A stretch of DNA of 64,000 nt from an uncultured Actinomycetes bacterium (GTDB lineage Bacteria > Actinomycetota > UBA4738 > JACQTL01). The stretch lies in contig CAVYXG010000009.1 in NCBI GenBank assembly GCA_963772375.1, positions 31,312-95,311 of the forward strand, read 5' to 3'. The position numbers and the translations under genes are program-made. The notes under the pieces were generated by a model that saw only the letters and a program-made list of their open reading frames with translations, was not told where the DNA came from and did not search any database. Shown here in pieces: positions 5,233 through 64,000 of this stretch (the first letter of the stretch is position 1; each line of letters opens with the position of its first letter).

Positions 5233-5729
5233 TCGACAACATCAAGGTGCCCCAGCCGATGAAGTTCATCCTCAACTGGGGCCGGCGGTACTCCCTGTGG
5301 ATCATGAACTTCGGCCTGGCGTGCTGCGCCATCGAATTCATCGCGGCGTCCACGTCGAAGCACGACTTCATCCGGTTCGGGGTGATCCCGTTCGCGCACG
5401 GCCCCCGGCAGGCCGACCTGCTGCTCGTGGCCGGAACGGTGACCGACAAGATGGCCCCGGCCATCAAGCGCGTCTACGACCAGATGCCGGACCCCAAGTA
5501 CGTCATCTCGTTCGGCTCGTGCTCGAACTGCGGCGGCCCGTACTGGGACAGCTACTCGGTGACCAAGGGGGTGGACCAGTTCGTCCCGGTGGACGTGTAC
5601 GTCCCGGGGTGTCCCCCGCGTCCGGAGGCCCTGCTGCACGGCATCATGAAGCTGCAGGAGAAGATCGCGCAGGAAGACATCGGGGAGAAGTGGACTGGTG
5701 GCATCTCGCCGGCCCCTCACGGTTCCTGA
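5223..5729 (+). CDS. nuoB: NADH-quinone oxidoreductase subunit B
   Basis: [32 protein letters not shown]. Confidence 0.96.
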
Positions 5730-53929: not shown

Positions 53930-54976
53930 TCAGAACCAGCCGCGCCGCCTGAAGAGCGAGAGCAGGAGGCCGACGATCGTGATCTCCAGGCCGATGCCCA
54001 ACAGCGGAAACAGCGGAAGGGTCGATATGTGCCGCACCATCCAGCCGAAGTTCTGGCCGAAGAAGCCGGTGATGAAGGTGAGCGGCAGGAAGATCGTCGC
54101 GATCACGGTGAGCTGCTTCATCACGGCGTTGAGTCGATTCGAGACCGTCGACAGGTAGACGTCCATCGCGCCGGTGAGGAGATCGCGGTAGCTGTCGATC
54201 AGATCGCTGATTCGGATCAGGTGATCGTAGACGTCGCGGAAGTACCGCTCGTCCTCCTTTCCGAGCCCCGGCAGCTCGGTGAGGCCCCCCATGAGGCTCG
54301 CGAACGCGTCGCGCTGAGGCGTGACGGCCTTGCGCATGCCCACCAGTAGGCGCTTCATCCCGAAGATCTCCTGGAGCTGCCGGTCATCCGCCTTCTGGAA
54401 GATGCTGCTCTGGAGCTCGTCGATCCGATCGTCGAAGGCCGACAGGATCGGAAAGAAGCTGTCGACGAGGCCGTCCACGACGCGGTACAGCAGCAGCGAC
54501 GGGTGGTCGAACTTCGCGTCGCTCCTCTGGTAACGCCGCCGGATCTCGGCGAAGGACGGGCAGTCGTCGTGGTGGATAGTGACGAGGAAGCGCTCGGAAT
54601 AGAAGCAGTGCACCTCCACCAGGCGGTCTTGATCCGATGTCGCTCCGTAGACCACTACGAAGATGAAGTCGTCGTAGTCGTCGAACTTGGCCCGCTGGTC
54701 GAAGTGCTGGGAGTCCTCGATGGCAAGCGGATGGAACTTGAAGACGTCACGGAGGATCTCGAAGTCCACCGCGGTGGGCTGGTCGAGGTCGAGCCAGAAG
54801 AAACGCCCGCTCGCAAGGCGGGCCTCGACCGTCTCTCGGCTGAAGTGGACGCGCTCAGAGCCGTCCCGGTCTACCACGTAACAGGCCGAGGGCCCTGTCC
54901 GGTCCGGCGTAGCTTGTGTCCGGGTGGAGTCAAGGCCGACGGCGAGCGGATCGCTCGCCGACGAATCATGTCCCAT
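53930..54976 (-). CDS. corA: CorA family Mg2+/Co2+ transporter
   Basis: FHPLAIED, YFRDVYDH, LTVIATIFLPLTFITGFFGQNF (GQN variant of GMN). Confidence 0.92.
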   Translation of the reverse strand: MGHDSSASDPLAVGLDSTRTQATPDRTGPSACYVVDRDGSERVHFSRETVEARLASGRFFWLDLDQPTAVDFEILRDVFKFHPLAIEDSQHFDQRAKFDDYDDFIFVVVYGATSDQDRLVEVHCFYSERFLVTIHHDDCPSFAEIRRRYQRSDAKFDHPSLLLYRVVDGLVDSFFPILSAFDDRIDELQSSIFQKADDRQLQEIFGMKRLLVGMRKAVTPQRDAFASLMGGLTELPGLGKEDERYFRDVYDHLIRISDLIDSYRDLLTGAMDVYLSTVSNRLNAVMKQLTVIATIFLPLTFITGFFGQNFGWMVRHISTLPLFPLLGIGLEITIVGLLLSLFRRRGWF

Positions 54977-57489: not shown

Positions 57490-57745
57490 TCAGCCAAGAT
57501 CTCGGCGGCCGTCGCACTCGGATACAACCGCAAGTCCTGCAGACCGATGTGGAGCTCCGTGATCGGTTCGGGCGGGCTCCTCGCCTACCTGTGGGTGGGC
57601 GGGTCCGTGTTCAACGGGTATGTCGATCCTGATCAGCCTGACCCGCTCCTCCACGCCGTCGATCTGGATGCGGCCCGTGTCCCCGTCCACCACCGCGAGG
57701 ACGGTCGCTTCCTGACCGTCGAGGGGCGCAGCCGACGGACCCGTG
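57490..57745 (-). pseudogene. Degraded thermonuclease (SNase-like) remnant
   Basis: ATVLAVVDGDT..IDGVEERVRLIRIDIP resembles the SNase N-terminus, then similarity is lost. Confidence 0.6.
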
Positions 57746-57851
57746 ACCTGCAGGCGTCGCCACGATGAGCAGCGGCACCGAGAAAGCGGTTGATGACCAC
57801 CTTCGGCACCTCGTGAGCGTACGCTTACCGCCCGTCTCCCAGCTCGCCCGA

Positions 57852-57896
57852 TGCATGGCTTCGGGCCTCGGGGCCAGCGCGGCACCCCCCTACGGT
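57852..57896 (+). promoter_or_regulatory. Photolyase promoter: TGCATGGCTTC motif plus -10 TACGGT (leaderless)
   Basis: Motif starts 39 nt before the -10 hexamer; GTG start 6 nt after the hexamer. Confidence 0.45.
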
Positions 57897-57902
57897 GGAC
57901 GG

Positions 57903-59315
57903 GTGCGCACCCTCGTGCTGTTCACCCGTGACCTCCGCCTTCACGACCATCCGGACCTGAGCGAGGCGTGCCGGACCGGGGAGGTCGTCCCCGCGTTCGT
58001 GTGGGATCCGGACCTCGCGTCGGCTTCACCGAACCGGGCACGGTTCCTGGCGGAGAGCCTGGTGGATCTGGAACAGGCCCTCCGGCAGCGGGGCAGCCGG
58101 CTGCTCCTCCGGCGCGGGCCCGTCGCGGAGGGCGCAGCGCAACTGGCGATGGAGACCCGCTGCGACCGGATCTTCCTCACCGCGGACGCGGGGACCTACG
58201 CGACCGCACGGCTCGAGCGCCTGAACCGGTTGGCGGCGGACCGCGGCATCGGCGTGGAGACCTTCCCCGGCCACGCCGTCGTCGAGCCGGGAACCATCGC
58301 CCCAGCCGCGCGGTCCTCGTACCGGGTGTTCACCCCGTACTGGCGGGCGTGGCGCGCCGCTGACTGGCGCCGGCCCCTCCCCGCTCCGCCGTCGATCCCG
58401 ACGCCCCCGGACCTCGAGCCCGGAGCCCGGCCGGACCCTTCCCGGATCTTCCCCACCGCGTCCGACCTGCCGCCCGGCGGCTCCCACGCCGGCCGACGGA
58501 GTCTCTCGCGATTCCTGCGCGACGACCGCGGCGACGACCGCGGCCTCCGGAACGACCTGGCCGCCGACGCCACGTCGAGGCTGTCGCCATACCTCCGATT
58601 CGGCTGCGTGTCCGCGACGGAGGTGGCTCACCGTGTCGAGCGGGCCGGAGGGGATGAGTGGTTCCTCCGGCAGCTCGCGTGGCGCGACTTCTACTCTCAG
58701 CTCCGGGTCGAGCTGCCCGAGCTCACCCGCCAGGACCTCCGTGAGCCTCCGGACGGTCCCCGGCTCCAGGACGACGAGCTGTTCGCGGCGTGGGCGGAGG
58801 GGCGGACCGGATTCCCCCTGGTGGACGCCGGCATGCGCCAGCTCCTCGGGGAGGGGTGGATGCACAACCGGGCCCGGATGGTGACCGCGTCGTTCCTGGT
58901 CCGCCGGTGCGGCATCCCGTGGCAGGAGGGGGCCCGCCACTTCCTCGCGCATCTGGTCGACGGCGACCCGGCCAGCAACGCCGGTGGATGGCAGTGGGCC
59001 GCCGGGACGGGAACCGACCCCCGGCGGTCGCGTCCGCTGAACCCGCTGCGACAGGCCGCCCGGTTCGACCCCACCGGCGCGTACATCCGGCGCTACGTGC
59101 CCGAGCTGGTGGGACTGCCCACCCCCCTCGTCCACGCGCCGTGGCTGGACCCGGTCCGGGCTCGTTCCGTGGGTTACCCGGACCCGGTGATCGAGGTCGC
59201 CGGCATGGGGATCCGCGACCCGATCAGATCCGACCCGGCCAGGACATCGTCCCCCAGGTACGTCCCGAGGGCGTCCCGGCGCGAGGCGCTCGAGGAGAAC
59301 GCCGCCCCGGCGTAG
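57903..59315 (+). CDS. phrB: Deoxyribodipyrimidine (CPD) photolyase
   Basis: RDLRLHDH, FTPY, TSRLSPYLRFG, QLAWRDF, GWMHNRARM, DGDPASN.GGWQW. Confidence 0.94.
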   Translation: MRTLVLFTRDLRLHDHPDLSEACRTGEVVPAFVWDPDLASASPNRARFLAESLVDLEQALRQRGSRLLLRRGPVAEGAAQLAMETRCDRIFLTADAGTYATARLERLNRLAADRGIGVETFPGHAVVEPGTIAPAARSSYRVFTPYWRAWRAADWRRPLPAPPSIPTPPDLEPGARPDPSRIFPTASDLPPGGSHAGRRSLSRFLRDDRGDDRGLRNDLAADATSRLSPYLRFGCVSATEVAHRVERAGGDEWFLRQLAWRDFYSQLRVELPELTRQDLREPPDGPRLQDDELFAAWAEGRTGFPLVDAGMRQLLGEGWMHNRARMVTASFLVRRCGIPWQEGARHFLAHLVDGDPASNAGGWQWAAGTGTDPRRSRPLNPLRQAARFDPTGAYIRRYVPELVGLPTPLVHAPWLDPVRARSVGYPDPVIEVAGMGIRDPIRSDPARTSSPRYVPRASRREALEENAAPA

Positions 59316-60088
59316 AAGACCTCCACCCCGGACAGCCCGTTCACCGCCTTCAGCGACGCCACGGTGCTCTGGCGGTGGACGCTCCGCTGCGCCACCACCA
59401 CCGCGGCCCGGGCTCGGGTGGTCCGGCAGGCCTCGACCAGGGCTCCGGGCGGAGTGAGGGCACCGAGCATCCGGGTCGGCCATCCCCGCAGCGCGAGCAA
59501 CGTGGCGAAGGCCTCCAGTCCCACGCTGTGCAGTTCCTTCGGGCCGCAGGCGAGCACCACAGGCGCGACGGCCCTCGGCGGGGGAGCCAATGTCCGCAGG
59601 CGGGCCAGCCACGACCGGACCATGTCGGTGAGCAGGTGCTCGTTCTCGACGTCGCACGTGCCCGCTTTCCACCGGGAGCCCACCTCGTGCAGGGCATCCA
59701 CGGCGACCCTCCCGATCGCGGCGTCCACGCCCAGGCGGCCGGCCGCCTCGTCCAGGGTGGCGCGCACGCGGTCCGCGTCCAGGGCGGTCGCCGCCGCGAG
59801 GAGGGCATCGACGAAGGGTCGCGAGGCGGCGTCGGAGCCCGCCCCCGAGGCGGCCATCGCGGCCGCATCCCTGGCCGTGTGCCCGGCTCTGATGGCATCC
59901 CGCATCACCCGCAGACGCTCGGCGTCCTGGATCGAGTACCGCCGGTGGCGTCCGTCGGTCCGGGACGGGCTCCCGAGTCCGTACCGCCGCTCCCATGACC
60001 GGATGGTCGGGACTGGGATGCCCAACATCTCCGAGACGCCCGCGATGGGCATCCGTCCGGACGCACGCTTCACCGTTCGTTCGCTCAT
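59174..60088 (-). CDS. MerR-family regulator with cobalamin-binding domain (CarH/LitR-like photoreceptor)
   Basis: TIRSWERRYG..R..G.HRRYS MerR HTH; W-x9-EH (WKAGTCDVENEH); ELHSVG ExHxxG B12 motif; LGA.TP. Confidence 0.88.
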   Translation of the reverse strand: MSERTVKRASGRMPIAGVSEMLGIPVPTIRSWERRYGLGSPSRTDGRHRRYSIQDAERLRVMRDAIRAGHTARDAAAMAASGAGSDAASRPFVDALLAAATALDADRVRATLDEAAGRLGVDAAIGRVAVDALHEVGSRWKAGTCDVENEHLLTDMVRSWLARLRTLAPPPRAVAPVVLACGPKELHSVGLEAFATLLALRGWPTRMLGALTPPGALVEACRTTRARAAVVVAQRSVHRQSTVASLKAVNGLSGVEVFYAGAAFSSSASRRDALGTYLGDDVLAGSDLIGSRIPMPATSITGSG

Positions 60089-60090
60089 AA

Positions 60091-60879
60091 TCAGTTCGGG
60101 CGGAGGGTCCCGCCGTACACCTGCCATGCCAGCAGCGACTTGGCGACCAGCGACAGCAGGATGTACACCCGCTCGCCGTAAAGGTAGTCCCGCCACGGAC
60201 CGACCTTGCGGTACTGCAGCACCATGTTCACGGCGAACACGTTGAAGAACAGGAAGATCGACACGAAGATGAAGTAGACGAAGGTCGGGGGGCCCACCTC
60301 CCCGCGGCCCGCTCCGATGAGGTAGATCGCGATGGCCACCCACGGGACCGCACCGGCGAACACGCCGAACCAGTAGGACAGCCAGTTCGTCTTCCGGGTG
60401 GTCTGATTGTGGACCTCCATAACCCAGCCGAACAGGATCATGCACGCGTTCACAGCGGCGATCGCGAGCAGCGCGACGACGTCGTAGATGCCGACGAGCA
60501 TCGAGATCACCACGATCATCAACGACGAGCTGACGGCGTACTCCATCCAGCGCCCCGGGTTCATGCCGAGGGCGAGGTTCCGGCGGTACCAGCCGTACCC
60601 CACGGTGGCGATGAGCAGGTGGGCGAGGGCCGACAGGAACAGGAACCCCACCACCAGCAGCGCGACGGGCAGGTCGAACAGGACCTGCGGCTCGGGGAAG
60701 AGGCGAACCCCTGGGCCGGGCTGGTCCTGCAGGAAGTTGGACATCACCGGCAGGGTGACGCCGCTCGCGATGGCGAGCATGACGAGGCCCTGCACGAGAT
60801 GGAGGGATCCGGCGCCGAGGTTCCAGCTGCGGAGCCGATCGGAGCGCTCCGCTCGAGCCGCGATCGCCGCTGTGCTCAT
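60091..60879 (-). CDS. heR: Heliorhodopsin
   Basis: 7 TM; WN..G.LH..Q, SALAH, NPGRWMEYAVSSS (Glu counterion), YGERVYILLSLVAKSLLAWQ with the SLVAK retinal lysine. Confidence 0.95.
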   Translation of the reverse strand: MSTAAIAARAERSDRLRSWNLGAGSLHLVQGLVMLAIASGVTLPVMSNFLQDQPGPGVRLFPEPQVLFDLPVALLVVGFLFLSALAHLLIATVGYGWYRRNLALGMNPGRWMEYAVSSSLMIVVISMLVGIYDVVALLAIAAVNACMILFGWVMEVHNQTTRKTNWLSYWFGVFAGAVPWVAIAIYLIGAGRGEVGPPTFVYFIFVSIFLFFNVFAVNMVLQYRKVGPWRDYLYGERVYILLSLVAKSLLAWQVYGGTLRPN

Positions 60880-60882
60880 GTC

Positions 60883-61350
60883 TCATGCCTCCTTCGCCGG
60901 GCGCGAGCGGGCCGCGCCGAGCCAGGCCTTCATTCCGGCGAGCGCCGCCTTGCCCATCTGGTTGAACGCTCCCCTGAGGAAAGGGGCGGCGAGGATGGCC
61001 AGTCCGGTGAGCCGGAGGTCTGCCTCGTAGGTGATGCGGGTCCCGCCGGGGACGGCGGCGAACTCGATGGTGTCGACCGCCTTCACCCGGGGCCCCTCAC
61101 CTCGGAGGACCACCCGGTGGGGGCGCCGGTACTCGGTGGTCACGTACGTCATGTCCTGCTCCGAGCCGCGGAACCGGACCCTCACGAGGTACTCCGCCCC
61201 CACCCCGCTCGGGTCCCCGCTGCCATCCCGGACCCGCTCGGCCCGGACCACGCCCGGGTCCCATCGCTCGGAGCTGGAGAAGTCCGCCACCGCGTCGAAC
61301 GCGTCACCTGCCCGCCCCGACACCTCGATCACCTCTCGAAGCACCGCCAC
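60883..61350 (-). CDS. SRPBCC/START-like ligand-binding protein
   Basis: AFDAVADFS...WDPGV, TRITY.ADL, C-terminal helix; GTG start fits the GGAGG spacing. Confidence 0.87.
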   Translation of the reverse strand: MAVLREVIEVSGRAGDAFDAVADFSSSERWDPGVVRAERVRDGSGDPSGVGAEYLVRVRFRGSEQDMTYVTTEYRRPHRVVLRGEGPRVKAVDTIEFAAVPGGTRITYEADLRLTGLAILAAPFLRGAFNQMGKAALAGMKAWLGAARSRPAKEA

Positions 61351-61364
61351 CTTCATCCTCCTGT

Positions 61365-61429
61365 TTGCATCGGTTCTCTCCACAAGGCTAGGTCTCCCCC
61401 CGATAGCTTCCATGCATGAACCTGTGCAA
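61365..61429. promoter_or_regulatory. Divergent promoter region with two inverted copies of the TGCAYMGGTTC motif
   Basis: TTGCATCGGTTC (61365-76, +) and TTGCACAGGTTC (61429-18, -), each 38 nt upstream of a TAGC(T/C)T -10 box on its own strand. Confidence 0.6.
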
Positions 61430-61452
61430 GTGCGATGAGGAAGGACGTTGCC

Positions 61453-62451
61453 GTGGCTGATGCCGCCTCCCTGCTCGACCGGGCCCTCGAAGCCCTGGTC
61501 GTCCCGTCGTTCTCCAGGATCGGCCCCGCGGTGCGCCGGCGCCTGTTCGACTGGGACGACCCCGCCTCGCCCTCCGTGGCCGGGCGGACCGTGGCCGTCA
61601 CCGGGGCGACCTCCGGCCTCGGCTTCGTGGCCGCCGAGGCGCTGGCCCGGGCCGGGGCCCGCGTCCTGCTCATCGGACGTGACCAGGCACGGACCGAGGC
61701 CGCCGCCGAGCGCATCCGGGGGGCGACGGGGCGCGACGACCTGGGGGTGTACCTCGCTGACCTCAGCGACCTGTCGAAGGTCCGCTCCCTCGCCGAGGCC
61801 ATCACCGCGTCCGAGCACCGGCTCGACGTGCTGGTCCACAACGCGGGGGCGCTGCTCACCGAACGACGGGACTCAGTGGACGGCCACGAGATGACGTTCG
61901 CCACGATGGTCCTCGGGCCGTTCTTGCTCACCCGCGAGCTCCTGCCGATGCTGCGGAGGAGCGACGACGGGCGGATCGTCACGGTCACCTCCGGGGGGAT
62001 GTACGCCCAGGCGTTGCGGCTCGACGACCTCCAGAGCGAGGAGTACCCGTACCGGGGCTCGATCGCCTACGCCAGGGCCAAGCGGGCCCAGGTGGTCCTG
62101 ACCCGTCTGTGGGCCCGGCAGCTCGCGGGCACCTCGGTGGTGGCGCACGCCATGCATCCGGGCTGGGCCGACACGCCCGGGGTGGAGGCCTCGCTTCCTC
62201 GGTTCCGCCGGCTGATGGGTCCCCTCCTGCGGACCCCCGAGGAGGGCGCCGACACCATCGTCTGGCTCGCCGCCGCGCCGGAGGCGTCCCGGTCGACCGG
62301 CCAACTGTGGCTCGACCGCCGGCCCCGACCCCTGGACAAGCTGCCCTGGACCCGGGTGAGCCCGGACCAGGCCCGTGCGCTGTGGCAGGCCTGCGACCAC
62401 ATGGTCGGCGATGCCCTGGAGCCCCGGCCGCCGCGGCCGTTGACTGCATAG
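61453..62451 (+). CDS. SDR oxidoreductase (DHRS12/retinol-dehydrogenase-like)
   Basis: TGATSGLG, HNAG, SGGMY, YARAK, MHPGWADTPG. Confidence 0.9.
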   Translation: MADAASLLDRALEALVVPSFSRIGPAVRRRLFDWDDPASPSVAGRTVAVTGATSGLGFVAAEALARAGARVLLIGRDQARTEAAAERIRGATGRDDLGVYLADLSDLSKVRSLAEAITASEHRLDVLVHNAGALLTERRDSVDGHEMTFATMVLGPFLLTRELLPMLRRSDDGRIVTVTSGGMYAQALRLDDLQSEEYPYRGSIAYARAKRAQVVLTRLWARQLAGTSVVAHAMHPGWADTPGVEASLPRFRRLMGPLLRTPEEGADTIVWLAAAPEASRSTGQLWLDRRPRPLDKLPWTRVSPDQARALWQACDHMVGDALEPRPPRPLTA

Positions 62452-62489
62452 GTTCGCACCCCACAACCTCTGCAACTGCCGGGGACCAT
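62445..62489 (+). promoter_or_regulatory. Internal promoter/operator: TGCATAGGTT-N10-AACCTCTGCA plus -10-like GACCAT
   Basis: 9/10 inverted repeat; motif starts 39 nt before the hexamer; ATG 6 nt after it. Confidence 0.45.
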
Positions 62490-62495
62490 GGGGGC

Positions 62496-63794
62496 ATGCG
62501 GATCGCGGTGATCGGTGGAGGGATCTCGGGCCTCGGCGCGGCGTGGGCGCTCTCCCGTCGGCACGCGGTGACGGTCTACGAATCCGAACGTCGGCTCGGA
62601 GGGCACGCGAACACGGTCGAGATCGACGAAGGCGACCGGGTCGTTCCGGTCGACACCGGGTTCATCGTCTACAACGAGCGCACCTACCCCAACCTGACCC
62701 GGCTGTTCGCCGCCACCCGCGTCTCCACGGAGCCGAGCGACATGTCGTTCGCGGTGTCCCGGGACGGCGGCCGGTTCGAGTACGGCGCCAGCGCGCCGGG
62801 CCTGCTCGCGCAGCTCCCGAACCTGGCCCGGGGCAGCTACCGGACCATGGTCCGCGACATGCTGCGGTTCATGCGCGAGGCTCCCGCCCTGGTCGGGTCG
62901 GGGTCCACCGAGCCGCTGGGTGAGTTCCTGGACCGGGGCCGGTACGGGGAGCCGTTCCGGCGCGACTTCCTGCTCCCGATGCTGGCCTGTATCTGGTCCT
63001 CGAGCCTCGACGCGATGCTCGACTACCCCGCGGAGTCGATGGCCGGCTTTCTGGACAACCACGGCCTGCTCCGGGCGGTCGGGCAGCCCCGGTGGCGCAC
63101 GGTGACCGGCGGAAGCCGCGAGTACGTGCGGCGGCTCTCGGCCGGCTTCGCCCGGGATGTCCGGCTGGCGACGCCGGTGCAGGCCGTCCAGCGCCACGCC
63201 GACGGCGTGGTGATCAGGGACGCCCGGGGCGGCGCCGACCGCTTCCACCACGTCGTATTCGCCACCCACGCCGACATCACGCTCCGGATCCTCGGGCCCG
63301 ACGCCTCCCCCACCGAGCGTGCGGTGCTGTCGGCGTTCCGGTACCAGGAGAACCGGGCGGTCCTGCATCGGGACCCCTCGCTGATGCCGCGACGTCGCCG
63401 GGTCTGGTCGAGCTGGAACTACCTGGCGGATGGCGACGACGGCTCGGAGCGGGTCAGCCTGTCGTACTGGATGAACCGGCTCCAGAACCTCCGCACCGAA
63501 CGACCGGTCATCCTGACCCTGAACCCCTCGCGCGAGCCCCGCCATGTGGAGAGCGAGCACATCTACCACCATCCGCAGTTCGACGGCCGGGCGGTGAACG
63601 CCCAGCGCCGGTTGCCGGGGATCCAGGGTGTGGACCGGACGTGGTTCGTCGGCGCGTGGACCGGCTACGGCTTCCATGAGGACGGCCTGCGCTCGGGCCT
63701 CGAGGTCGCGGCCGCCCTCGGCGCGCCGGCGCCGTGGTGGGCCTCGCGGACCGTGACCCACCCGGAGCGTCGGATGGCTGGAGCGGTAGCGTGA
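62496..63794 (+). CDS. FAD-dependent oxidoreductase/desaturase of the CFA/furan-fatty-acid cluster type
   Basis: GGGISGL, RLGGHANT, VDTGFIVYNERTYPNL, SWNY, YGFHEDG. Confidence 0.92.
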   Translation: MRIAVIGGGISGLGAAWALSRRHAVTVYESERRLGGHANTVEIDEGDRVVPVDTGFIVYNERTYPNLTRLFAATRVSTEPSDMSFAVSRDGGRFEYGASAPGLLAQLPNLARGSYRTMVRDMLRFMREAPALVGSGSTEPLGEFLDRGRYGEPFRRDFLLPMLACIWSSSLDAMLDYPAESMAGFLDNHGLLRAVGQPRWRTVTGGSREYVRRLSAGFARDVRLATPVQAVQRHADGVVIRDARGGADRFHHVVFATHADITLRILGPDASPTERAVLSAFRYQENRAVLHRDPSLMPRRRRVWSSWNYLADGDDGSERVSLSYWMNRLQNLRTERPVILTLNPSREPRHVESEHIYHHPQFDGRAVNAQRRLPGIQGVDRTWFVGAWTGYGFHEDGLRSGLEVAAALGAPAPWWASRTVTHPERRMAGAVA

Positions 63795-64000
63795 GCGAGG
63801 CGCGAGCCTCCGCGCTGTACGTCGGCCGGGTCACCCACGCGCGTCACATCCCCCCCAAGCACCGGCTGTCCTACAGGGTGTGGTACCTGCTCCTGGATCT
63901 CGACGAGATCGAGGAGCTGGACCGCGACCTCCCTGGGTTCGCCGCCGAGCGACCCGGGCCGGTGAGCTTCCGGGCGGCCGATCACGGGCCCGGCGACGGC
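63791..64000 (+). CDS. DUF1365 family protein (runs off the window)
   Basis: SALYVGRVTHAR..P.H...Y....LLLDLDE...SF..ADHG; GTGA overlap. Confidence 0.88.
   Translation, partial: MSEARASALYVGRVTHARHIPPKHRLSYRVWYLLLDLDEIEELDRDLPGFAAERPGPVSFRAADHGPGDG

Follow-up and report, generated by a model that had tools for sequence, protein, structure and literature searches.

The question raised by this locus is which DNA site ties the genes of a small light cluster into one regulon, and which protein reads that site. The cluster, whose motif copies and -10 hexamers span positions 57,852-62,489, lies in a 64,000-nt stretch of contig CAVYXG010000009.1 from an uncultured Actinomycetes bacterium; the whole stretch is called the window here, and the source genome (4.75 Mb, 70% GC) is G000. 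L-numbers denote loci, and the other G-numbers denote genomes of relatives. The cluster comprises a DNA photolyase gene, an SDR gene, an operon for an SRPBCC protein, heliorhodopsin (HeR) and a CarH/LitR-type regulator (litR), and an operon headed by a flavin amine-oxidase-type oxidoreductase (the flavoprotein gene), all assigned by Pfam (Table 1). A first-pass annotation had pointed out one 11-bp motif at the same position in the four promoters and proposed it as the operator defining the regulon. Our comparison of sequences supports this proposal through the rank of the motif among words upstream of orthologous genes, its co-occurrence with and adjacency to litR, its confinement to four promoters, and its fit to the known CarH unit. 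We conclude that the word, with the consensus TGCAYNGGTTC (reverse complement GAACCnRTGCA), is the predicted recognition unit of the cluster's own LitR and the putative operator of a small photoprotection regulon. We consider it probable (roughly 0.6) that this operator acts by dark repression.

A promoter element at a fixed distance from the -10 hexamer

All five copies of the motif reported in the first-pass annotation are present in the sequence where it had placed them. The distances that it gave from the unit starts to TACGGT, TAGCTT, TAGCCT and GACCAT (39, 38, 38 and 39 nt) proved correct, and Pfam matches bore out its assignment of the four promoters to their genes. The -10 boxes had been chosen by eye; they gain support from a peak at 38/39 nt that recurs in relatives and from the start codons of the photolyase gene, the flavoprotein gene and orthologues of both, which follow 6-7 nt later. 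In G000 the photolyase gene (GTG at 57903) and the flavoprotein gene (ATG at 62496) start 6 nt past the hexamer; both transcripts are therefore predicted to be leaderless, and this actinobacterial layout would apply to two of the four promoters.

In each of the four promoters the strong unit is oriented towards its gene. Counted from putative transcription start sites (TSSs), it reaches from about -51 to -41 and so ends upstream of the -35 position. The units of the divergent SDR (61366) and SRPBCC promoters each overlap the other promoter, at about +2 to +12. With TSS positions inferred, the partner units of this divergent pair and the second unit of the flavoprotein promoter are the only ones that overlap promoter cores. 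The stop codon TAG of the SDR gene sits inside the unit at 62445-62455 (TGCA-TAG-GTTC), so the predicted flavoprotein operator overlaps the end of the upstream SDR coding region.

Confinement to the cluster in the source genome

In the window, the pattern TGCANNGSTTC occurred five times against a mean of 0.46 in shuffled sequence, and none of 100 shuffles reached five. One of these five matches (54602, minus strand) lies inside a CorA-transporter open reading frame (ORF) identified by Pfam (53930-54976, minus strand) and looks fortuitous. When up to two mismatches to the consensus were allowed, eight matches were found against a mean of 4.02, a result that is weak alone, as 3 of 100 shuffles reached eight. 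Genome-wide, the degenerate pattern had 103 matches in G000, mostly TGCA[GC]-type words, and most of them look like in-frame coding sequence when judged by eye, without gene calls. Given these 103 matches, the window statistic alone was insufficient, and comparative evidence had to decide.

A position weight matrix (PWM) was trained on 22 sites from relatives only and then run over all of G000. It returned 71 matches of at least 13 bits, five of them within this 4.6-kb stretch. The five copies scored 22.4 (62445, rank 1), 18.8 (61366, rank 2), 15.2, 14.4 and 13.6 bits. Among 530 sites of at least 8 bits, 25 had a -10-like hexamer at 38/39 nt, and the top four of these were the four promoters of the cluster. 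The next-best composite site scored 12.9 bits, and the other composite matches, at or below this score, look like noise. The composite element in G000 is confined to the four promoters of this cluster. A genome-wide scan had been suggested in the first-pass annotation as a check, and its outcome favours the motif: a matrix trained on relatives ranks two of the copies first and second, and the motif combined with a -10 hexamer at 38/39 singles out the four promoters. These peak ranks, with the 8-mer counts given below, also set the motif apart from background.

The third-best matrix match (TGCATGGGTTC, 18.3 bits) is located on contig C1 of G000 at 291392-291402 (L088 993-1003). We rejected this match as a functional site; it overlaps the ATG of an Lrp/AsnC-type regulator gene, adjoins an unusually AT-rich spacer, has no -10 hexamer at 38/39 and is probably fortuitous.

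Conservation of the word and its spacing in relatives

LitR orthologues were found in 12 of 60 sampled relatives (E <1e-70). Up to 20 kb was fetched around those litR and heliorhodopsin genes, and ten named loci from metagenome-assembled genomes were added. In an unbiased count over 43 segments upstream of orthologous cluster genes, the top 8-mers were CATAGGTT, GCATAGGT, ATAGGTTC and TGCATAGG, present in 14, 14, 11 and 11 segments, respectively; the same words occur 18, 18, 11 and 14 times in all of L041-L058. At least ten other genomes share the word, its orientation and its spacing at orthologous promoters with diverged flanks. The promoters of photolyase orthologues hold the unit at the same offset in L042 (8621) and L077 (8223), and all three photolyase promoters, that of G000 included, have weaker variants of the word. 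The promoters of flavoprotein orthologues in L041, L050, L077 and L079 keep the unit at 38/39.

The spacing was examined in 79 loosely defined sites from the window and 31 loci, taken without promoter selection. Strict TANNNT occurred nine times at offset 38 and five times at offset 39 (14 of 79 sites), and at most once at any other offset from 11 to 99. In the opposite direction from the motif, TANNNT was absent at 38/39 and occurred at most three times anywhere. A search of 498 kb gave 66 sites that differ from TGCATAGGTT(C/T) by no more than one mismatch, and [T/C/G]ANNNT stands at 38/39 in 28 of them. A start codon opening a long frame with high GC content at third codon positions lies 6-7 nt past the hexamer at 13 of 33 sites with such a hexamer. 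Photolyase, flavoprotein, heliorhodopsin, SRPBCC and epimerase genes from different genomes are among those that begin there. Of the 33 sites, at least four (two in L055; L056 8258; L057 7903) are probably chance coding matches. When 19 promoters were aligned, the 27-28 nt between unit and hexamer held no conserved column, and the column statistics revealed no -35 box. Several promoters have a hexamer with a weak first base (GACCAT, GATACT, CATACT and CAGGAT). A scan of 57600-62700 for E. coli-type promoters returned none, which is uninformative for promoters that lack a -35 box.

Linkage of the word to litR

We compared 151 genomes of the order, scoring as LitR-positive those with an orthologue at E <=1e-40 and tallying counts by hand. 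The exact 10-mer TGCATAGGTT was present in 36 of 39 LitR-positive genomes (89 matches compared with 17 for the reversed-word control) and in 19 of 112 LitR-negative genomes (21 matches compared with 59 for the control). Of the 39 LitR-positive genomes, 23 have a copy no farther than 600 bp from litR. At stand-alone litR genes, LitR is the sole identifiable neighbour of the sites. These linkage counts are descriptive and are not a test, the relatives not being independent. Eight unpublished genomes entered the co-occurrence tallies only, and G073 gives 3 of the 21 matches in the LitR-negative group. Some of the 'negative' genomes are incomplete or, as in G039, have a LitR fragment adjoining the word. 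A flavoprotein orthologue was not found in any of the five LitR-negative relatives searched (G001, G004, G006, G007 and G018), one of them of the same genus, in which two other genomes carry LitR; the module therefore seems to come and go whole, which suggests that it is gained or lost as a block.

The regulator and the gene cluster

The regulator matches MerR_1 and B12-binding_2 in Pfam, with a weak match to B12-binding. The B12-binding motifs of CarH are W-x9-EH, in the four-helix bundle, and E/D-x-H, in the Rossmann fold. In an alignment with Thermus CarH (5C8D) that spans both domains (E 1.2e-20), the regulator keeps the WERRYG recognition-helix region, W-x9-EH (WKAGTCDVENEH) and E-x-H (as ELH). 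A PduO-type adenosyltransferase is present in G000, and a search of this genome did not find a CobA/BtuR-type enzyme. Only 2 nt separate the heliorhodopsin stop from the litR ATG; litR would therefore be transcribed from the SRPBCC promoter and hence stand under its own motif. The three genes of this operon are packed stop-to-start (60086-60093 and 60879-60885). Among the genes examined in and beside the cluster, Pfam identified no other transcription factor and no sigma factor. We consider it supported, at the level of sequence, that the putative G000 regulon consists of the photolyase gene, the autoregulated SRPBCC-HeR-litR operon, the SDR gene and a lipid-type operon of the flavoprotein and DUF1365 genes. 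The last of these operons continues beyond the window with genes for an unknown 166-aa protein, a cupin and a GNAT acetyltransferase.

Table 1. Motif units, -10 hexamers and genes of the light cluster (positions in the window).
Feature	Position	Strand	Remarks
LitR unit, photolyase promoter (TGCATGGCTTC)	57852-57862	+	Weak variant, PWM 14.4; no second unit nearby
-10 hexamer TACGGT, photolyase	57891-57896	+	39 nt from unit start
DNA photolyase gene	57903-59315	+	Pfam DNA_photolyase and FAD_binding_7; GTG start, predicted leaderless
CarH/LitR-type regulator gene (litR)	59174-60088	-	MerR HTH and B12-binding domains; last gene of the SRPBCC-HeR-litR operon
Heliorhodopsin (HeR) gene	60091-60879	-	Pfam Heliorhodopsin, E 1.3e-102
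SRPBCC gene	60883-61356	-	Pfam Polyketide_cyc2; first gene of the minus-strand operon; start 28 nt past -10 hexamer
LitR unit, SDR promoter (TGCATCGGTTC)	61366-61376	+	PWM 18.8, genome rank 2
-10 hexamer TAGCCT, SRPBCC-HeR-litR	61390-61385	-	38 nt from start of unit at 61428
-10 hexamer TAGCTT, SDR	61404-61409	+	38 nt from start of unit at 61366
LitR unit, SRPBCC-HeR-litR promoter (TGCACAGGTTC)	61428-61418	-	52 bp offset from the SDR unit and inverted relative to it
SDR gene	61453-62451	+	Pfam adh_short; ORF opens at ATG 61435; likely start GTG 61453 behind GAGGAAGG
LitR unit, flavoprotein operon (TGCATAGGTTC)	62445-62455	+	Exact consensus; PWM 22.4, genome rank 1
Second, inverted unit at flavoprotein promoter (TGCAGAGGTTG)	62474-62464	-	Distance to the first unit 19 bp; position about -32 to -22
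-10-like hexamer GACCAT, flavoprotein	62484-62489	+	39 nt from unit start
Flavin amine-oxidase-type oxidoreductase (flavoprotein) gene	62496-63794	+	Pfam; ATG start
DUF1365 gene	from 63791 (window ends at 64000)	+	Pfam; only the start lies in the window

Photolyase and litR are convergent genes with open frames that share 142 bp (59174-59315). Matches to relatives end at about residue 432-434 of 470 in the photolyase and about residue 290-302 of 305 in LitR, so both proteins appear to carry non-conserved tails that run into each other. The litR matches in G012, G074, G125 and G144 each show one in-frame TGA; these are the furthest-reaching matches (query residues 296-302), and the TGA is probably a natural stop that the search read through. 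Just downstream of the cluster lie a gene for a 615-aa An_peroxidase homologue (animal haem peroxidases; L087 3548-5395, G000 C9 98447-100294; E 5e-102) and a UDG-family glycosylase gene; no motif was seen before either of them.

The same promoter design in relatives

In relatives, the same promoter design precedes ECF sigma genes (L041 1282-1989 and L085 794-1375), genes for a soluble acyl-desaturase-type protein (L042), an epimerase/DUF1731 protein (L071), a DUF4397 secreted protein (L078) and SRPBCC proteins, and a heliorhodopsin gene (L054), with weaker variants before the heliorhodopsin genes of L056 and L057. Two near-identical promoter modules (unit, spacer and TAGGTT) were observed in L041 of G035 at 1141-1290 and 5440-5586, in opposite orientation and about 4.4 kb apart. 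They flank a heliorhodopsin gene and include the first codons MEMRIANRLAVIV; one drives the ECF sigma factor and the other a 195-aa protein without a Pfam match. In L051 (10405-10749, G030), a leaderless 115-aa ORF follows a consensus unit and directly precedes the flavoprotein gene. Its match to the heliorhodopsin model is limited to the last 63 positions, and it looks like a heliorhodopsin remnant kept as the first ORF of the operon.

Heliorhodopsin neighbourhoods with MerR-family regulators, photolyase and SDR are already in print; according to the accessible part of PMC11109279, MerR-family regulators are among the ten commonest neighbours of heliorhodopsins, and heliorhodopsins have been proposed to bind their operon partners. 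The literature searched yielded no published heliorhodopsin-CarH link, although heliorhodopsin and LitR do co-occur in print, and strings of the motif were met there only as unrelated primer coincidences. An operator for this actinobacterial group was not found in print; a similar LitR site from Streptomyces or Bacillus could stand in older LitR papers or in supplementary alignments. PMC12705666 gives no LitR site, and the accessible portion of an RNA-seq paper on freshwater actinobacteria (PMC8591293) contains no LitR or motif content.

Comparison with known light operators

According to the accessible text of PMC9304148, CarH tetramers bind tandem 11-bp direct repeats, 5'-nnnnTnnACAn-3', with three repeats in the Thermus operator and four in that of Bacillus, overlapping the -35 or -10 element; a relaxed search rule, N4-T-N2-RCR, is also given there. 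The reverse complement of the word (GAACCTATGCA) satisfies the unit nnnnTnnRCAn: in AACCTATGCAn, T occupies position 5 and GCA fills positions 8-10. Likewise, AACCTATGCA (GAACC-TAT-GCA) fits the relaxed rule. The G000 system shares several features with CarH of Thermus thermophilus and Bacillus megaterium (5C8D/5C8E): a MerR-type DNA-binding domain joined to a B12 module with W-x9-EH and E-x-H, an 11-bp unit with a T-N2-RCA core (here TATGCA), a regulator gene that lies within the regulon and adjoins its own operator, and a light-protective regulon. However, three to four tandem repeats at an 11-bp period stand there, whereas here one unit is strongly conserved, without phased pseudo-repeats. 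The core is GCA here and ACA in the canonical unit, and the GAACC half is also conserved here. Moreover, the unit is found farther upstream than the -35 position, always on the antisense strand, and keeps a constant distance of 38-39 nt to the -10 hexamer; the targets are photolyase, heliorhodopsin and lipid-type genes rather than carotenoid genes.

Three other systems offer parallels. In myxobacteria, CarH homologues bind operators with one true repeat, and one operator may serve two divergent promoters, as single operators do in Sorangiineae and Nannocystineae, where the authors stress the plasticity of operator design; the operators there consist of contiguous 11-bp repeats and pseudo-repeats overlapping the core promoter, and the accessible text reports no fixed-distance rule (PMC9304148). 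Class II LitR proteins of Pseudomonas (PplR1/PmlR2) recognize TGTACA-N12-TGTACA and, like the regulator proposed here, are linked to light-induced photolyase-type genes, which they repress; their two hexamer cores, in direct orientation, lie about two helical turns (18 bp) apart, comparable to the direct pairs of units spaced 20-21 bp in relatives here. They differ, as far as the available text of PMC9758184 goes, in that they do not bind B12, are switched by a LOV anti-repressor, have sites overlapping the -35 element or the leader, and read another word. The Streptomyces LitR-LitS system is likewise an actinobacterial B12-LitR acting on bidirectional promoters, and light-state activation has been proposed for it in the part of PMC11519972 available, which gives no sequence of the Streptomyces LitR site. 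The motif precedes an ECF sigma gene in two relatives, but no ECF sigma gene was found in or beside the G000 cluster; LitR of G000 appears to control effector genes directly, unlike the Streptomyces cascade.

Two other layouts were looked for at these promoters. The unit ends 27-28 nt upstream of the -10 hexamer and no -35 box is present, which is not the classical MerR-type operator layout of a palindrome within the 19-20-bp spacer that separates -35 from -10. The ECF (LitS-type) layout, in which a conserved -10 word comes about 15-17 nt after the -35 word (GCATCCR-N15-CVGAAD in Streptomyces), was not seen either, there being no conserved positions between the unit and TANNNT at 38/39. Second units took three forms: inverted and 17-19 bp away (the flavoprotein promoters of G000 and L041, and L049 and L054); inverted and 52-53 bp away in the divergent SDR/SRPBCC pair (G000 and L041; the layout also in L079), where each unit is 38-39 nt from its own -10 hexamer; and direct and 20-21 bp away (L042 and L071; L069 and L070 by eye). 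Judged from these alignments, the element is a putative CarH/LitR operator of a lineage-specific design, in which one strong anchor in a fixed register takes the place of tandem repeats.

Discussion

Overall, after analyzing the comparative data, we propose a putative mechanism for light control by LitR in this cluster. In the dark, the strong unit (about -51 to -41) would hold an adenosyl-B12-bound LitR oligomer in place, and the remaining DNA-binding domains of the oligomer would cover the adjoining region from -40 to -20. At the flavoprotein promoter these domains would sit on the second, inverted unit; in the divergent SDR/SRPBCC pair they would use the partner unit, which overlaps the opposite promoter at +2 to +12. 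The bound oligomer would thereby keep RNA polymerase off four sigma-A-type promoters without a -35 box. Light would break the Co-C bond, the oligomer would fall apart, and all four units would be transcribed. The motif, its conservation and spacing, its linkage to litR and the B12 motifs of the regulator are read directly from the sequences, whereas we infer the binding of the word by LitR, the direction of dark repression and the geometry of the oligomer. Dark repression is preferred because it is the rule of the family, as far as the accessible texts of PMC9304148, PMC9758184 and PMC11519972 extend, and because the positions of the second units fit: that of the flavoprotein promoter at about -32 to -22 and those of the divergent pair at +2 to +12 are consistent with occlusion.

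Several points weigh against this proposal. The strong unit lies upstream of the -35 position and need not block polymerase by itself. The alignment of 19 promoters shows no tandem 11-bp period: signal is absent at +/-11, 22 and 33, and the only informative columns are those of the 11 bp and the -10 hexamer. In addition, 5 of the 19, including the photolyase promoters of G000 and L042, have no second unit of at least 6 bits within 70 bp. The 38/39 rule is broken by 38 of 66 near-consensus sites, some of which are second units, and the units beside stand-alone litR genes (L043, L045, L047 and L052) point away from litR and lie at other distances. The co-occurrence counts overstate significance, since the relatives are not independent. 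Dark repression also leaves the 1-bp-rigid distance and the single orientation unexplained. Such features are the hallmark of an occupant that touches polymerase, and a spacing fixed within 1 bp over unrelated promoters of several families is more typical of activator sites.

These features are what an activating LitR would account for. At about -46, LitR could be a positioned activator or a dual switch that contacts polymerase and on which light-induced transcription depends, whether or not it also represses in the dark; the single orientation and the 1-bp-fixed spacing to the -10 hexamer hold across genes and families although the 27-28 nt between them are not conserved, and the promoters have neither a -35 box nor an extended -10, several having a weak first base in the hexamer. 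Nonetheless, we regard this alternative as unlikely. The same 38 of 66 near-consensus sites stand off the 38/39 spacing. Thermus CarH is not known to bind DNA once exposed to light, the sites of MerR-type activators are located between -35 and -10 rather than at -46, and -35-less TANNNT promoters in actinobacteria are normally self-sufficient. The LitR/CarH proteins characterised in the accessible parts of PMC9304148 and PMC9758184 were all repressors in vitro; the Streptomyces model, in the available text of PMC11519972, has the light form of LitR 'activate' the litS promoter besides the dark repression of litR and litS. Because of this model and the rigid spacing, an activating or dual role keeps a minority share of our belief. 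It is accordingly doubtful, but worth bearing in mind, that the unit at about -46 is no steric operator but a positioning element by which the B12 photoreceptor contacts RNA polymerase, and that LitR of this lineage is a light-dependent activator, or a repressor-to-activator switch, of leaderless promoters without a -35 box. If it were so, one photoreceptor (LitR) would set the level of another (heliorhodopsin) that is co-expressed with LitR itself.

Whether the word is read by LitR at all has also to be weighed. It might serve as the -35 element of an alternative sigma factor of the LitS-like ECF kind, or be bound by an unlinked regulator that merely travels with the cluster; the -35 element of Streptomyces sigma-LitS, GCATCCR, shares GCAT with the motif (from the accessible part of PMC11519972), and a motif promoter precedes an ECF sigma gene in two relatives (L041 and L085). 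However, the stretch 15-18 nt downstream of the word contains no conserved element, and the sole other signal is TANNNT at 38/39. Neither a sigma factor nor a second regulator turned up among the genes examined in and beside the G000 cluster, LitR alone can be identified next to the sites at stand-alone litR genes, and the frequency of the motif tracks the presence of LitR across genomes. We consider a reader other than LitR very improbable. That the four copies are a chance cluster of common words in a GC-rich genome might be argued from the weak two-mismatch test (8 against 4.02; 3 of 100 shuffles) and from the 103 degenerate matches, mostly coding-like. This explanation is effectively refuted by the first and second ranks under an independently trained matrix, by the retention of word, orientation and spacing in at least ten other genomes despite diverged flanks, by the offset peak of 14 against at most one elsewhere, and by the 8-mer counts and the co-occurrence with litR. 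Dark repression by the cluster's own LitR thus stands as the preferred explanation.

The 11-bp unit together with its -10 hexamer could make a small light-switchable promoter for high-GC hosts, and the 1-bp-rigid spacing offers a handle on whether actinobacterial LitR only represses or also activates. For uncultured soil Actinomycetota, a large group, the predicted operator would supply a concrete, testable DNA word and the design of promoters under B12-based light control. It would also place heliorhodopsin, the role of which is still debated, in the regulon of a B12 photoreceptor, in one operon with the regulator.

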